A stretch of 64,000 nt of DNA from a virus (lineage: Duplodnaviria > Caudoviricetes). Positions 41,043 to 64,000 of this stretch are shown here, in pieces. Position numbers and translations under genes: made by a program. Position 1 is the stretch's first letter. Every line of letters begins with the position of its first letter. The notes under the pieces were generated by a model. The model saw only the letters and a list, made by a program, of their open reading frames with translations, had not been told where the DNA came from and did no database searches. The stretch covers positions 1-64,000 of IMG/VR virus record IMGVR_UViG_3300032301_001148. The stretch is one strand, 5' to 3'.

Positions 41043-42257
41043 TTGATTTTTCAAACTCTTGATGATAAAAATGAATGCGTTGGTTTTTTTGTTGACCAAA
41101 AATTAAATTTCCATCAATCAATTCCCGATAACTTATCTAAAACTTGGTCTTATTCCGGCTTTTTAAAGGGCAAGAATATTGACTATGCACAACTTTATTG
41201 TGATGGTAAAACGCTTGATGAAGTGTGCCCCGAGCATTTGAAGGAGGATTGGCAAAATATCAATAAAAAATTAAAGAGTATTATTTCTTCTTGCATTGAA
41301 TCAAAAGTGTCATTAAGAGAAAATTGTTTTTTTGATTTGACTCCGCAACGTTTTCTGGTTGAGTATTGTCATTTGCGAAATCAAATTAGTGAACATGTTT
41401 TTAATGCTTTTCCTAAGCCAAGTGAATATGATTTCTATAAGCGGTTTAATGAATTGCTGCACGATATTAAATGCAGAGATATGAATATTAATTTAGAGAA
41501 TATTCAGAACAAACTATGGAAAGAAAATGCCATGGCGTTCTACAAAAAGATTGCAAATGGCAATAATCATATTTCATACAATATGTTTGGTTCTATCACA
41601 GGTCGCCTGACGGTTAATAAAAACAGCTTTCCTATTTTGACATTTCCAAAACAGTTTCGTAGCATTCTTCAGCCGCAAAATGATTGGTTTATTGTATTTG
41701 ATATGAATGCCGCCGAACTACGCACCGCTTTGGCTTTAAATGGGCGAGCGCAACCCGAAGGCGACTTACATGGTTGGAGTGCCGAAAACGTTTTTAAAGG
41801 GCAGCTAGACCGCTCTAAAGCGAAAGAAACGGCAACTGCTTGGTTGTACAACTCACATTCTCCGCTTTCTGTACAGTATGATAAGGAATTAGCGCAGCTT
41901 TATGATAAGCAAGCATTATTAAAGAAGTATTGGATTGATGGTTATGTTGAAACGCCATATGGTCGTAAAATGCAAGCTGACGAACATCATGCAATATCAT
42001 ATTTAAATCAGTCTACGTTTATTGACATGTTTCATCGTCAAATTATTAAAGTGGATGATTATTTAAAAGATAAGAAAAGTTTTGTATCTTTCATGATTCA
42101 TGATGAATTTGTTTTGGATGTAACAGATGATGAAAAAAATGATATAGTCCAGATAATTAAGATACTGCAAAGCACGCCATATGGTACATTTCCTGTTAAT
42201 GTAAAGGCAGGAAAAAACTATGGTGAATTAAAGAAGTTAAATTTAAAGGTAGAGTAA
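41043..42257 (+). CDS. Family A DNA polymerase, polymerase core only
   Basis: TGRL, motif A FDMNAAELR, motif B RSKAKETATAWLY, VETPYGR, YLNQST and motif C MIHDE; SD gagg with TTG start. Confidence 0.8.
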   Translation: MIFQTLDDKNECVGFFVDQKLNFHQSIPDNLSKTWSYSGFLKGKNIDYAQLYCDGKTLDEVCPEHLKEDWQNINKKLKSIISSCIESKVSLRENCFFDLTPQRFLVEYCHLRNQISEHVFNAFPKPSEYDFYKRFNELLHDIKCRDMNINLENIQNKLWKENAMAFYKKIANGNNHISYNMFGSITGRLTVNKNSFPILTFPKQFRSILQPQNDWFIVFDMNAAELRTALALNGRAQPEGDLHGWSAENVFKGQLDRSKAKETATAWLYNSHSPLSVQYDKELAQLYDKQALLKKYWIDGYVETPYGRKMQADEHHAISYLNQSTFIDMFHRQIIKVDDYLKDKKSFVSFMIHDEFVLDVTDDEKNDIVQIIKILQSTPYGTFPVNVKAGKNYGELKKLNLKVE

Positions 42258-59894: not shown

Positions 59895-60091
59895 TGAATG
59901 ATAATCCGCTAGCTGGAGAATTATGGTTAGATAAACATAATGATAATTATTTATTTATCACCACTCAAAAAATGATGATTTCTTCTTCTCTTGACCAAGA
60001 ATGGATTTGGTGGCATAATATAAGCTGTAACACAGTCGGTAATTCATCGTTAGAATATTTCTTAAACCGTTGCATAAAGGTAAACAAATAA
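59894..60091 (+). CDS. Hypothetical protein
   Basis: ORF track; TAATG coupling at both ends. Confidence 0.5.
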   Translation: MNDNPLAGELWLDKHNDNYLFITTQKMMISSSLDQEWIWWHNISCNTVGNSSLEYFLNRCIKVNK

Positions 60092-62748
60092 TGAGCGAAA
60101 GAAAAAAGCCTAGCATTCCGTTTGCCAATTTGCATGGACACACCACGTATTCGGTAAGTGATGGATTGGGCTATCCAGAAGAGCACGCCAACTTTGCAAT
60201 TAGCAATGGTCTTGAAGGAATGGCTTTTACCGAACACGGTAATTGTAATTCTTTCTCATATGCTTTTATGAAGGCAAAGAAGCTAAAGGAAGAAGGCAAT
60301 AAATTTAAGATTTGCTACGGCATTGAAGCCTATATCCATCCGTCTATTCAGGATTGGAAACTGGAAAAGCAAAAGCACAAGGAAGATGCAAAGCTTTCCA
60401 AGCAAATTGATGAAGATGTTGGACTTGTTGTTGAAGACGAAAGCGAAACCAAGAAGGGTATTCGCTCAACACTTAATCGTCGTTCTCATTTAGTTTTGCT
60501 TGCCCAGAATCAAAAGGGTCTAAACAACATTTTTAAGCTTGTTTCAGATTCATATCGTGGGGATAACTTTTATCGTTTCCCACGTATGGATTATGAAATG
60601 CTCAAGAAGTATAATGAGGGAGTTATTGCAAGCTCTGCCTGCCTTGGTGGAGTGTTGAGCAATGATTATTGGGCAAACATAGATAAGGGAGAGAAGGCCG
60701 TTTATACAGCAATGGAAAAGACTGTCGGGAATATGATGGATATCTTTGGCGACCGCTTTTATGGTGAGTTGCAATGGGCAAACTATAAAGAGCAGCATAT
60801 TGTAAATCAGTTTATCATTAATCTTTCCAAACAATTTGGTTTCAAGCTTATCAGCACTTGTGATGCACATTTTCCTTCACCAGATATGTGGAAGGACCGT
60901 GAGATTTATAAGATGCTTGGTTGGCTTGGAAAAGGTAAGAATGAACTTAAGATTGATGCACTTCCACACACATTGGAAGAAATGGAATACCAACTTTATC
61001 CCAAAAATGGTGACGAACTATTCGCAACGTATAAGCGTTTTTCAGGCGCTCTTGGATTTAGCTACGATGATAAATTGGTAGAGGAGAGTATCGCTCGTAC
61101 TGCGGATATTCTCAAGAATCGTATTGAAGATTATATGCCTGATACAAGTGTTAAGCTTCCGTCCTTCGTTGTTCCAGAAGGTGAAACGGCTGATAGTGCA
61201 TTGGCAAAGATTGCCGTTGATGCACTAAAGAATACTGGTCTATACAAAGATAATGATTATGTTTCCAGACTTAAGGAAGAACTCCACACCATTAAGGACC
61301 GTGGATTCTCTAAGTATTTCCTTACAATGAAAAAGATTTCCGATAAGTCTAAGGAAGTCCAGCTTTGCGGTGGAGGTCGTGGTTCAGGAGCAGGTTCGCT
61401 TGTATCTTATTTATTGAATATTACCGAAGTAGACCCAATCAAATATAAGCTTCAGTTCAGCAGATTTATCCGCAAGACGGATACGAATCTTCCTGATATT
61501 GACTTTGACGTTTCCGACCCGATGGAAATCAAGGAAATGTTTATCAAGGAATTCGGTGAGAACACTGTTGTTCCTATCTCAAATTATAACACTCTAAAGG
61601 CTCGCTCTCTTGTTAAGGATATCAGCAAGCTATATGGTATTCCTTTTACAGAGGTAAATGAAGTTACGTCCAAAATGATTCATGAGGCAACTCCTGTCTG
61701 TAAGAAGATTCATGGAATTATTGCGGGTGTGTATGAGCCTACTTGGGAAGAGTTAAAGGAGCATTCTCCTTCTCTTGTGTTATATCTAAAGAAGTATCCG
61801 CACGTTGCGACACACGTTGATAACTTGCAGAAGCAAGTTCGTTCAATCTCTCGCCATGCTGGTGGTGTATTGTTTGCAGATAATATAGATGAGAAAATGC
61901 CGCTAATTAATAGCGGTGGCATTATTCAAACTCCTTGGACCGAAGGGCAAACAGTTCGTCACTTGGAACCCCTTGGTTGGGTTAAGTTTGACGTGTTAGG
62001 TTTAGCTTCTCTCCGCATGATTGAAGGTGCGATTGAGCATATCTTGAAGCGGCACCACAATATGCCAAATCCAAGCTTTGCGGATATCAAAAAGTATTAC
62101 AACGAAAAGCTACATCCAGAAAAGATTGACCTAAATGACGAAGGTGTATATAAGCATATCTTTAATGAAGGCAACTTCTGTGGAACGTTCCAGTTCACCA
62201 GTAAGAATGCACAGAAATTCTGCATGCAAGCAAAGCCAAAGAACATTGTAGATATTGCCGCTATTACGTCTATTTTCCGTCCCGGTCCATTATCAGCAAA
62301 CGTACATGAAAATTATATCACTGCAAAAAATAATACTGATACGATTCGCTATGCTCACCCACTAATTAAAGAGGTAACACAAGACACATTTGGCTTCCTT
62401 GTATTCCAAGAACAATTAAGCCTACTCGCTCATAAACTAGGCAAGGATATCTCGCTGGATGAAGGCAACGAACTCAGAAAAGTTCTTACAAAGAAAGGCA
62501 CTGGAAAAGAGGCTCAAGTTAAAGAGAAACTGTACAGCAAGTTCATTGCCGGTTGCACCGAAAAAGGTCTTTCAGAGGATGACGGAATCTCTCTTTGGAA
62601 GACTATGGAATTCTTCTCAGGATATGGCTTTAACCTTTCTCATGCTATCTGTTATTCTATACTTTCTTATCAGTGTGCTTATCTTTTCTATCATTACCCT
62701 GCTGAATGGCTTGCTGCATTTCTTGATGCGGAATCGGGAATAATTTAA
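60091..62748 (+). CDS. dnaE: DNA polymerase III alpha subunit (family C), N-terminal fragment: PHP, palm, thumb and fingers
   Basis: NLHGHTTYSVSDG, TEHGN, GIEAY, SACLGG, DAHF, GRGSGAGSLV, PDIDFD, RHAGG, KFDVLGL, FRPGP, FQEQ and GYGFNLSHA; ends AAFLDAESGII-TAA. Confidence 0.95.
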   Translation: MSERKKPSIPFANLHGHTTYSVSDGLGYPEEHANFAISNGLEGMAFTEHGNCNSFSYAFMKAKKLKEEGNKFKICYGIEAYIHPSIQDWKLEKQKHKEDAKLSKQIDEDVGLVVEDESETKKGIRSTLNRRSHLVLLAQNQKGLNNIFKLVSDSYRGDNFYRFPRMDYEMLKKYNEGVIASSACLGGVLSNDYWANIDKGEKAVYTAMEKTVGNMMDIFGDRFYGELQWANYKEQHIVNQFIINLSKQFGFKLISTCDAHFPSPDMWKDREIYKMLGWLGKGKNELKIDALPHTLEEMEYQLYPKNGDELFATYKRFSGALGFSYDDKLVEESIARTADILKNRIEDYMPDTSVKLPSFVVPEGETADSALAKIAVDALKNTGLYKDNDYVSRLKEELHTIKDRGFSKYFLTMKKISDKSKEVQLCGGGRGSGAGSLVSYLLNITEVDPIKYKLQFSRFIRKTDTNLPDIDFDVSDPMEIKEMFIKEFGENTVVPISNYNTLKARSLVKDISKLYGIPFTEVNEVTSKMIHEATPVCKKIHGIIAGVYEPTWEELKEHSPSLVLYLKKYPHVATHVDNLQKQVRSISRHAGGVLFADNIDEKMPLINSGGIIQTPWTEGQTVRHLEPLGWVKFDVLGLASLRMIEGAIEHILKRHHNMPNPSFADIKKYYNEKLHPEKIDLNDEGVYKHIFNEGNFCGTFQFTSKNAQKFCMQAKPKNIVDIAAITSIFRPGPLSANVHENYITAKNNTDTIRYAHPLIKEVTQDTFGFLVFQEQLSLLAHKLGKDISLDEGNELRKVLTKKGTGKEAQVKEKLYSKFIAGCTEKGLSEDDGISLWKTMEFFSGYGFNLSHAICYSILSYQCAYLFYHYPAEWLAAFLDAESGII

Positions 62749-62756
62749 AATATCAT

Positions 62757-62802
62757 ACTACTTATAGTAAGATGGTTGGCGGCATTTCTTACTATTATGG
62801 AG
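62757..62802 (+). promoter_or_regulatory. Late-motif variant, hairpin and RBS ahead of the homing endonuclease
   Basis: ACTACTTA at 62757-64; 9-bp stem atagtaaga (62764-72) / tcttactat (62787-95); GGAG at 62799-62802. Confidence 0.45.
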
Positions 62803-62810
62803 AAAATGAT

Positions 62811-63506
62811 ATGATGGGTATTTATAAAATAACTAATAAAATAAACGGATTAATTTATATAGGTAGTTCTAAAAATATAGAATATCGCTGGAGAAAGCAT
62901 AAGGAAATGTTGGAAAGTGATAGACATTATAACTGTCATTTACAAAGTAGTTGGAATAAATACGGCTCCGAAAACTTTATTTTTGAAGTTTTAGAAGAAA
63001 CAACAAAAAATCATTTATTAATTAGAGAGCAGTATTATTTAGACACCTTGACTCCTTTTGATACTTTAGGCTATAATGCCTGTAAGATTGCTGGTTCTCC
63101 TTTGGGCTATAAACATACCGAAGAAACTATAGAGAAAAGAAGAAAAATACTTAAAGGTAGAACAGTGAGCGAAGAAACAAGAAAAAAAATTGGTGATAAA
63201 TTAAGAGGCAAAAAACGCTCTCCAGAACAAATAAAAAAATTTTCTGAAGTACAAAAAACAAGATGGGAAAAAATGTCGGATGAAGAAAAAAGTTTAAAAA
63301 AGCAAGAAGTTAAAGAACATTTTGCCAAATATCCAAAAAAAATAAGCGAAGAAACAAAAGAAAAAATAAGGCTTTCTCTCCTTGGAAGAAAAAGACCAAA
63401 AGAATTTTGTGAAAAAATGTCAAAGATTAGAAAAGGTAAAAAACTTTCCGAAGAAACAAAACAGAAATTAAGGGAAATAGCAAAAGAAAGAAAAAATAAT
63501 GAGTGA
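62811..63506 (+). mobile_element. Free-standing GIY-YIG homing endonuclease with NUMOD3-type repeats
   Basis: GIYKITNKINGLIYIGSS...R...H...N..LQ..WNKYG..NF.FEVLE catalytic domain, then repeated (H/V/I/L)SEET(R/K).K(I/L) units. The likely start is the ATG at 62811, after GGAG. Confidence 0.92.
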
Positions 63507-64000
63507 CATTGTAAATATTGAAAAGGCTATTGCAATGGTAAAAACTTTTGGTTTTGAAATAAAACCATTAGATATAAATACGTCCGGTGTTCGCTGGGGT
63601 ATATCAGATGATGGTAAAACATTAATCCAACCTCTATCTTCTATTAAAGGTCTTGGCGATACTGCTATGGCGGAAATCATGAAGCACCGTCCATTTAGGG
63701 ACGTAGAACATTTACTGTTCAGTGAAGATATTGTTTACAGCAAGCTAAACAAGAAAGCTTTGGACGCATTAACACGCAGCGGAGCTATGAATAATCTAAT
63801 GGATAAAAGATTTACTGGATTAAAGCACTTCTGGTCTGCTGTTGTAGTAGACCGTCCAAAGAATGTTAAGAAGCTACATGAAAACATTGACAAGTATAAG
63901 CCAGAAGGAGATTTCACAACTGAAGAAACAATTGAAAATCTAACTTCACTTTCTGGTGTATATCCAATCAACCTTGTCGTTGATGCGAAAACACTAAAGA
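63499..64000 (+). CDS. dnaE: DNA polymerase III alpha subunit, C-terminal fragment (HhH region), running off the window edge
   Basis: The ATG at 63499 overlaps the endonuclease stop (ATGAGTGA). Translation MSDIVNIEKAIAMVKTFGFEIKPLDINTSG...LSSIKGLGDTA...RPFRDVEHLL...KLNKKALDALTRSGAM matches the DnaE PDIN.S / IKG.G / L...GA motifs. Confidence 0.9.
   Translation, partial: MSDIVNIEKAIAMVKTFGFEIKPLDINTSGVRWGISDDGKTLIQPLSSIKGLGDTAMAEIMKHRPFRDVEHLLFSEDIVYSKLNKKALDALTRSGAMNNLMDKRFTGLKHFWSAVVVDRPKNVKKLHENIDKYKPEGDFTTEETIENLTSLSGVYPINLVVDAKTLK

Follow-up and report, generated by a model that had tools for sequence, protein, structure and literature searches.

The alpha subunit of DNA polymerase III (Pol III alpha, encoded by dnaE) is normally a single polypeptide chain. 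We analysed a stretch of 64,000 nt (the window), which comprises the first 64 kb of the 76-kb IMG/VR record IMGVR_UViG_3300032301_001148 (~38% complete) from an uncultured marine phage of the Caudoviricetes, and in which dnaE lies in two pieces, dnaE-N and dnaE-C, on either side of a free-standing GIY-YIG/NUMOD3 endonuclease gene. A replicative C-family polymerase seems here to function as two chains that are not ligated, the cut being at the junction between the fingers and the helix-hairpin-helix (HhH) domain.

The closest precedent named by the original prediction, which was made from the letters of the window without database searches, is the nrdA gene of phage Aeh1 with its mobE endonuclease gene, and the parallel is a fair one. 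There, as here, an essential replication-related gene occupies two adjacent, co-oriented open reading frames (ORFs) around a free-standing endonuclease gene, with no intron or intein, and a hairpin (predicted, in the present case) lies in the 5′ untranslated region (UTR) of the endonuclease gene. Non-covalent assembly of the pieces has been shown for Aeh1 and would be expected here. The two systems differ in that the endonuclease is of the HNH type in Aeh1 and of the GIY-YIG type here, and in that the target here is a C-family polymerase. Moreover, whereas the inserted tails of Aeh1 NrdA are interaction domains essential to the protein (Crona et al. 2010, PMC3045599), the tails at the present break are 4–12 residues long and are not conserved between clades, and the split recurs over many lineages and outlasts endonuclease loss.

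Other genes in pieces share some of these features. Split gp43 of T4-related phages (Petrov, Karam and co-workers, as cited in PMC2677866) is likewise a two-gene replicative polymerase without an intein, in one case with a GIY-YIG gene between the pieces, but it belongs to polymerase family B instead of C, and the site and phage group differ. Dassa et al. 2009 (PMC2677866) described dnaE loci from marine metagenomes whose fractures involve split inteins and free-standing endonucleases, and also noted intein-less fractures of nrdA and gp43. Their three marine dnaE loci (with Vsr-like or GIY-YIG endonucleases) resemble this one in habitat type, gene and free-standing endonuclease, in an upstream hairpin or promoter element, and in an endonuclease stop codon that overlaps the downstream start. 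The dnaE genes of two relatives described below (L046 and L050) and the inosine monophosphate dehydrogenase (IMPDH) gene of this very phage are true split-intein fractured genes of that type; by contrast, no split intein lies at the dnaE break studied here, so that trans-splicing is not possible. Cyanobacterial DnaE (Ssp/Npu) is also made as two polypeptides broken in the same region of the protein, 34 codons upstream of the present site, but there each half bears part of a split intein, the halves become ligated, and their genes lie at distant loci without an endonuclease. Among cultured phages the nearest DnaE is ~30% identical, and two-piece DnaE annotations occur there at other sites: GenBank lists ‘DNA polymerase III alpha’ twice around an intervening ORF in Bacillus phages vB_BauM_KLEB27-3 (an HNH gene) and Jayan, but the breaks are at ~residue 690 and ~residue 410, with longer non-coding flanks in which an intron is possible. 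In the literature we found no account of a dnaE that a GIY-YIG gene splits without an intein, and the break is an addition to the known genes in pieces of the Aeh1 nrdA/mobE kind.

The two dnaE pieces tile an intact orthologue

Coordinates are collected in Table 1, together with the layouts and junctions of related loci, which are referred to by their locus handles; those that the original prediction had given for the dnaE-N stop, the endonuclease gene and the dnaE-C start all proved correct against the ORF map and the raw sequence. dnaE-N runs through the PHP, palm/thumb and fingers modules and a final helix equivalent to residues 871–881 of the intact orthologue, followed by a six-residue tail (AESGII) and a TAA stop codon (62746–62748), its 3′ end reading ...AEWLAAFLDAESGII. 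Its start is likely the ATG at 60091 (MSERKK...), in agreement with orthologues, instead of the TTG at 60070. A spacer of 62 nt, the sole non-coding part of the insert, separates dnaE-N from the endonuclease ORF, which opens with an ATG at 62811 preceded by GGAG 8 nt upstream and ends with a TGA at 63504–63506. The ATG of dnaE-C at 63499 overlaps this endonuclease stop by 8 nt (ATGAGTGA).

Pfam assigned PHP, DNA_pol3_alpha and DNA_pol3_finger to the first ORF, GIY-YIG (1.7e-11; 44.7 bits) and NUMOD3 (26.5 bits) to the middle one, and HHH_6 (1.5e-13) to the last, and the two dnaE pieces cover positions 36–825 and 832–955 of the phrog_405 DNA polymerase profile. Together with an AlphaFold2 model, these matches place the C-family modules PHP, palm, fingers, HhH and OB in order. 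An intact orthologue matched the alpha subunits of Taq, E. coli and M. tuberculosis in the PDB at 1e-85 to 1e-71.

Uninterrupted dnaE genes are present in the IMG/VR relatives L004 (1144 aa) and L006. Aligned with L004 (~90% identical), the N and C pieces tile the intact protein with the six-residue N tail as the only extra, in keeping with the few new terminal residues that had been anticipated. At the break the intact protein reads AAFL(T/D)-KEPEDRKEAAISLAKYYG(Y/F)NIKGLDIN..., while the N piece of the window ends AAFLD+AESGII and the C piece (MSDIVNIEKAI...) aligns gap-free to the 37 residues after AAFLD in L004. Because the C piece is gap-free from AAFLD and the N piece stops six residues past it, there is no room for an intein. 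A metagenome scan with the C piece as query added a single locus, L035, in which the match starts at query residue 8, as in intact alleles.

Table 1 Features of the dnaE locus in the window, and layouts and junctions at related loci.
Feature or locus	Position	Strand	Description	N tail after AAFL(D/Q)	C head
dnaE-N	60091-62748	+	885 aa; ORF, Pfam PF02811 + PF07733 + PF17657, phrog_405 1e-203		
Heterologous cassette	62726-63608	+	883 nt in place of 113 nt of the intact allele; no blastn similarity to L004, L006 or L003		
Predicted RNA hairpin, endonuclease 5′ UTR	62750-62812	+	RNAfold -14.5 kcal/mol, z -2.05; 7/200 shuffles as good		
Promoter-like phage motif	62757-62766	+	ACTACTTATA (family ACTAYTTATW); 45 nt upstream of endonuclease ATG		
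GIY-YIG + NUMOD3 endonuclease gene	62811-63506	+	231 aa; Pfam PF01541, PF07460; phrog_314 ‘homing endonuclease’ 3.5e-35		
dnaE-C	63499-64000, on to 64293 of record	+	264 aa; helix, HhH module, OB-like beta domain; ORF, Pfam HHH_6		
ACTAYTTATW copies	4065, 19457, 21820, 27696, 32972, 42460, 62757	+	mostly intergenic		
Window junction				AESGII	MSDIVNIE
L036			N 885 / GIY-YIG 245 / C 264 aa	LESGLI	MSDMGNIE
L037			523 / LAGLIDADG 323 / 454 / GIY-YIG 277 / 260 aa	KHTK	MGMNME
L038-L041			14 contigs, JGI and ENA; N 877-880 / GIY-YIG 284 / C 267 aa	SETEK (L038)	MSKGLE (L038)
L042			523 / LAGLIDADG 340 / 459 / C 260 aa; no endonuclease at this break (TAA-T-ATG)	METEKGS	MSKLE
L044, L045			GIY-YIG 272 / C 260 aa	METNKNNGSSKK (L044)	MATIE (L044)
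L046			79% identical relative; split intein at GFN|S with Vsr-like endonuclease		
L050, L051			four contigs, longest listed for this protein 213 kb; dnaE in four pieces	MEEEKN (L050)	MSNIE (L050)

A foreign tract replaces part of the intact allele

By blastn, window positions 60086–62725 correspond to L004 2335–4976 at 88% nucleotide identity and 63609–64699 to L004 5090–6180 at 94%. The heterologous cassette between them runs from the codons of the N tail and their stop, through the spacer and the endonuclease gene, into dnaE-C, of which it takes in the first 37 codons, and its GC content is 27–31% versus 38–43% in the flanking dnaE. This tract, which resembles the split-type head of P0241 (72% identity), is at the sequence level the signature of an endonuclease cassette acquired together with a co-converted flank. 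Because it is AT-rich and brought 37 foreign dnaE codons, the cassette appears to behave as a mobile gene-splitting unit. Intact genes prevail in the family (3575 matches, mostly of 1138–1146 aa, on contigs of up to 195 kb).

The 5′ end of dnaE is also variable. Its first ~110 codons are far more diverged than the remainder (L003 versus the window, 69% nucleotide identity over 60087–60411), and L004 and L006 have, directly against the start of their intact dnaE, a 263-aa ORF with a Phage_endo_I-like C-terminal domain (1549–2340 in both) that the window lacks. The diverged end and the adjoining ORF suggest a second endonuclease-associated exchange boundary. Separately, dnaE is broken by plain frameshifts into overlapping ORFs with no insert in L003 (2659–5774) and L047 (2395–5810), most likely through assembly or sequencing indels and not as natural splits.

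The break recurs at the same site in diverged lineages

A search with dnaE-C found stand-alone C fragments that start at the same position, and the gene order of their contigs was compared. Independently assembled contigs of no fewer than five diverged lineages share the N / GIY-YIG / C order at this dnaE site. The arrangement is less singular than the original prediction had assumed, and related fractures of polymerase and ribonucleotide reductase genes, as well as of dnaE by split inteins, were already known. The identical layout in independent JGI, ENA and Logan assemblies also rules out an assembly chimera. Many 269-aa proteins beginning ‘MAAFLDKEPE...’ resembled additional stand-alone C pieces but were left out of the count, L047 showing that they derive from intact genes truncated where a contig ends or through a frameshift. 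IMG/VR relatives of the endonuclease itself (L007–L034) included none in a dnaE context.

Two further lineages (L042; L050/L051) keep the break without the endonuclease. In L050 the site reads ...AAFLQ-MEEEKN and a stop codon, a 108-nt spacer, and then MSNIEKAIS...; the spacer, shared with L051, contains a 21-codon ORF in which the first ~9 codons of the GIY-YIG gene are joined to its last ~12. Since this ORF fuses both ends of the gene, the endonuclease was deleted here and the split was kept. A +1 frameshift at the L042 junction was considered and judged unlikely, as there is no slippery re-pairing. This abundant marine phage family, with thousands of metagenomic homologues, displays all stages together: intact dnaE, a split intein accompanied by a Vsr-like endonuclease, a GIY-YIG-occupied break that lacks an intein, an endonuclease relic and a clean two-gene junction. 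In such a natural series one can ask by what route selfish endonucleases break up essential genes, how the breaks come to be fixed, and in which cases healing requires an intein.

Several of these loci are broken at other dnaE sites as well. L050 (1275–6789; L051 alike) has one split intein at GRG|C...VHN|S and a second at GFNK|S...TSN|S with a 344-aa Vsr-like ORF; its third dnaE piece is only 73 aa long (C-intein, 30 extein residues and tail), with the bare break next to it. In L037 (156–4114) and L042 (3–3943) an extra upstream break lies just before the PDIDFD motif, with a free-standing LAGLIDADG gene between the pieces. The tails at this LAGLIDADG break look intein-like, the C side ending ...GIRN|T in L042 and, with an ambiguous +1 residue, ...VRN|G in L037.

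Break position, junction residues and the endonuclease family

An AlphaFold2 model of intact L004 was built from a 55-sequence alignment (predicted local distance difference test (pLDDT) score 85.4). The break maps to the end of helix 871–881, before a two-residue turn (882–883) and helix 884–896, and pLDDT dips to 71 at this point versus 93–95 just upstream; the C-terminal domain is beta-rich. Both the Pfam domains and the model agree with the predicted position between fingers and HhH, and the distance from the GYGFN motif, previously put at about 35 codons, was counted here as 34. The corresponding position is after residue 845 of Taq alpha and residue ~788 of E. coli alpha. In intact homologues, W874–P883 is among the most conserved stretches of the C-terminal half, and its presence at the break fits how homing endonucleases pick their targets. 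Just downstream, the K887 position is invariant in 55 intact sequences and is I, L or M in all seven of the split alleles.

The endonucleases at this dnaE site in the window, L036, L037, L038 and L044 form one family, homologous end to end. Y5, Y16, R26/R28, H30 and E73 are invariant across the alignment of all five, and the C-terminal helix-turn-helix of the L037, L038 and L044 proteins is missing from the window and L036 copies. Between these last two the endonuclease has a ratio of nonsynonymous to synonymous substitution rates (dN/dS) of 0.12.

Selection and phylogeny of the split alleles

Between the window and L036, dN is 0.12 for the N piece and 0.13 for the C piece, and between L037 and L044 it is 0.24 for the C piece, with dS saturated in each comparison. 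Judged by these substitutions, the dnaE pieces are under purifying selection in the split lineages. In a DnaE tree of 62 rows, the six alleles broken at this position do not group together but are dispersed over the intact ones; the window groups with the intact L004/P0121 with support of 98. The split state requires at least 5 changes on this tree, and a single split clade, a group that was defined after seeing the tree, is rejected by the approximately unbiased test (p-AU 2.7e-56). This scatter indicates that the cassette moves between lineages, or that it is repeatedly replaced by intact alleles.

A probable two-chain polymerase and competing explanations

Taken together, these results make it likely that a GIY-YIG/NUMOD3 cassette split dnaE, and that Pol III alpha is produced, without splicing, as two chains that would associate non-covalently. 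According to this model, a free-standing cassette would insert in the conserved W874–P883 stretch that encodes the fingers/HhH two-residue turn, bringing with it tail codons and a stop, a promoter-like motif, a hairpin that may mask the ribosome-binding site, the endonuclease gene, and a new start with a short head. The polymerase would then be made as an 885-aa catalytic core (PHP, palm, thumb and fingers) and a 264-aa HhH + OB module, which would associate through their native interdomain interface with no splicing of RNA or protein. We infer non-covalent assembly from the conservation of both pieces and the persistence of the split. The endonuclease could cut the intact dnaE of co-infecting relatives, and repair would copy the cassette and some flanking dnaE, so that the split state would spread horizontally; the gene would stay split even after a later deletion of the endonuclease.

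Several observations count against such a model. The start of dnaE-C in the window has only an A-rich leader and no clear Shine-Dalgarno sequence, so that its expression level is uncertain. The N tails (4–12 aa) are unlike between clades and contain no evident docking module such as the essential tails of Aeh1 NrdA, and the AlphaFold2 model is of a single intact chain, which places the interface between N and C beyond its reach. The signal of purifying selection may be partly older than the splits, if the cassette reached each lineage independently. The 76-kb record has one GIY-YIG gene, and its single dnaE and lack of a PolB speak for the model, but a PolA-like gene is present (404 aa, 41043–42254; only the C-terminal ~90 residues match PF00476, at 42.8 bits), and with the record only 38% complete another polymerase could share or take over replication. 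Finally, Rfam models can overlook highly divergent introns; the Rfam searches at E<=10, one over 7 kb and one confined to the 971-nt region, gave no intron and only chance snoRNA-type matches.

One alternative, which we regard as unlikely, is that the split allele is crippled, with replication carried by the N core or by another polymerase such as the PolA-like one, and dnaE-C a decaying leftover that is briefly tolerated. The split in the window does look recent, its nearest relatives being intact, and the weak ribosome-binding site of dnaE-C, the PolA-like gene and the incomplete genome would all suit a failing allele. Decay is nevertheless hard to reconcile with a dnaE-C that is free of frameshifts and stops, at low dN, in every split lineage, with a split that lasts in deep lineages and after endonuclease loss, and with a C piece that carries HhH and OB modules near-invariant in 55 intact homologues.

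Slightly less likely still is an origin in which the break came first and the GIY-YIG gene later settled in the gap between two dnaE genes, in the manner of T4 seg/mob. Free-standing endonuclease genes do usually lie between genes, and L042 is a clean two-gene junction with no endonuclease. L042, however, groups with L037, with which it shares the LAGLIDADG/intein break and which has the endonuclease, and the L050 relic, by fusing the first and last GIY-YIG codons, records loss and not absence. In the window, moreover, the cassette edges coincide with the break and the nearest relatives are intact alleles.

We consider it very improbable that the insert of 770 nt is a group I (or II) intron carrying the GIY-YIG ORF (cf. 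T4 td/I-TevI), with mRNA splicing restoring the dnaE frame. GIY-YIG genes are frequently carried by introns, the ORF coordinates show no difference of frame between the two dnaE pieces, either in the window or in L036, and a minimal U...G splice-site rule could hold, with a T preceding 62728 and a G at 63501. Against this, the negative Rfam result extends to the 971 nt searched on their own, and the ORF leaves 62 nt upstream and 0 nt downstream, its 3′ end being an A-run of lysine codons that could not form an intron core. The pieces are in different frames in L038, L037, L044 and L042, L042 still has two ORFs though only 1 nt separates stop and ATG, and each C piece opens with a start codon of its own, in most cases with a Shine-Dalgarno sequence as well.

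The remaining alternative, ligation of the halves by a cryptic or degenerate split intein, or their being held together by dead intein stumps, is the least credible of all, for although split inteins are used in the dnaE of close relatives (L046 at GFN|S, L050 at two sites) and in the IMPDH gene 3.6 kb downstream in the same genome, Pfam detects no Hint/intein domain in either dnaE half, the N piece extends only six residues past the homology and the C piece not at all, the 4–12-residue tails are too short, there is neither a Cys/Ser/Thr +1 context nor an HN motif, and L050 mends two other dnaE breaks by inteins yet leaves this one bare. These in silico results uphold the original claim that neither intron nor intein is present.

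If the cassette split dnaE into two non-covalently associating chains, the break is a pointer to a permissive split site for engineered two-piece DnaE polymerases. A further, more speculative idea, which we hold to be possible though rather doubtful, is that the cassette acts as a gene-splitting module, self-contained and able to spread horizontally, with its own compensating change at K887, and that the detached HhH/OB piece is an exchangeable processivity or clamp-binding subunit. If true, this would be a replicase architecture undescribed for C-family polymerases.

Expression signals and persistence of the split

The spacer upstream of the endonuclease gene contains a motif of the ACTAYTTATW family. 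The window has seven copies, all on the + strand, versus 1.8 expected (0/100 shuffles reach seven), and five of them sit just upstream of ORFs. ACTAYTTATW also stands before endonuclease genes of three families (GIY-YIG, LAGLIDADG and Vsr-like) in L036, L037, L038, L044 and L046, and these genes would thereby share what is a candidate promoter of the phage. The predicted hairpin around this motif has an inner 9-bp stem (62764–62772 with 62787–62795), kept in L036, and an outer stem (62750–62756 with 62806–62812) that spans the region from the Shine-Dalgarno sequence to the start codon. Comparable hairpins are known from the endonucleases of fractured genes (PMC2677866). By analogy with these and with Aeh1, whose promoter-in-hairpin logic the hairpin and motif resemble, a regulatory role may be proposed.

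No + strand terminator was found between the dnaE halves, the scan for sigma-70 promoters and terminators giving results not above chance. A sigma-70-like site (TTGACT-18-TATAAT, 11/12) was noted at 63048–63077, inside the endonuclease gene and upstream of dnaE-C; the regional count of such sites is not above chance.

The original prediction had further proposed that translational coupling of the second dnaE half to the endonuclease gene would lock the selfish element in place. This corollary is contradicted by split alleles that have no endonuclease: L042 keeps the split with only a stop codon, 1 nt and an ATG, and L050/L051 keep it with only the 21-codon relic. In most other split lineages, too, dnaE-C has its own strong Shine-Dalgarno sequence, located inside the end of the endonuclease gene.

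A split-intein IMPDH gene in the same genome

Just past the window end, at 65919–68215 of the record (L002 7920–10216), an IMPDH/GuaB-like gene lies in two pieces that carry a true split intein. Its N piece ends GVGGG|CFIPDT... with a Hint match, its C piece reads ...IVHN|SICST with an Intein_splicing match, and a gene for a 266-aa DUF559 (Vsr-like) + NUMOD3 endonuclease lies between them, which makes it the IMPDH type of Dassa et al. 2009 (PMC2677866). The dnaE break without an intein lies 3.6 kb away, so that both solutions occur in a single genome.

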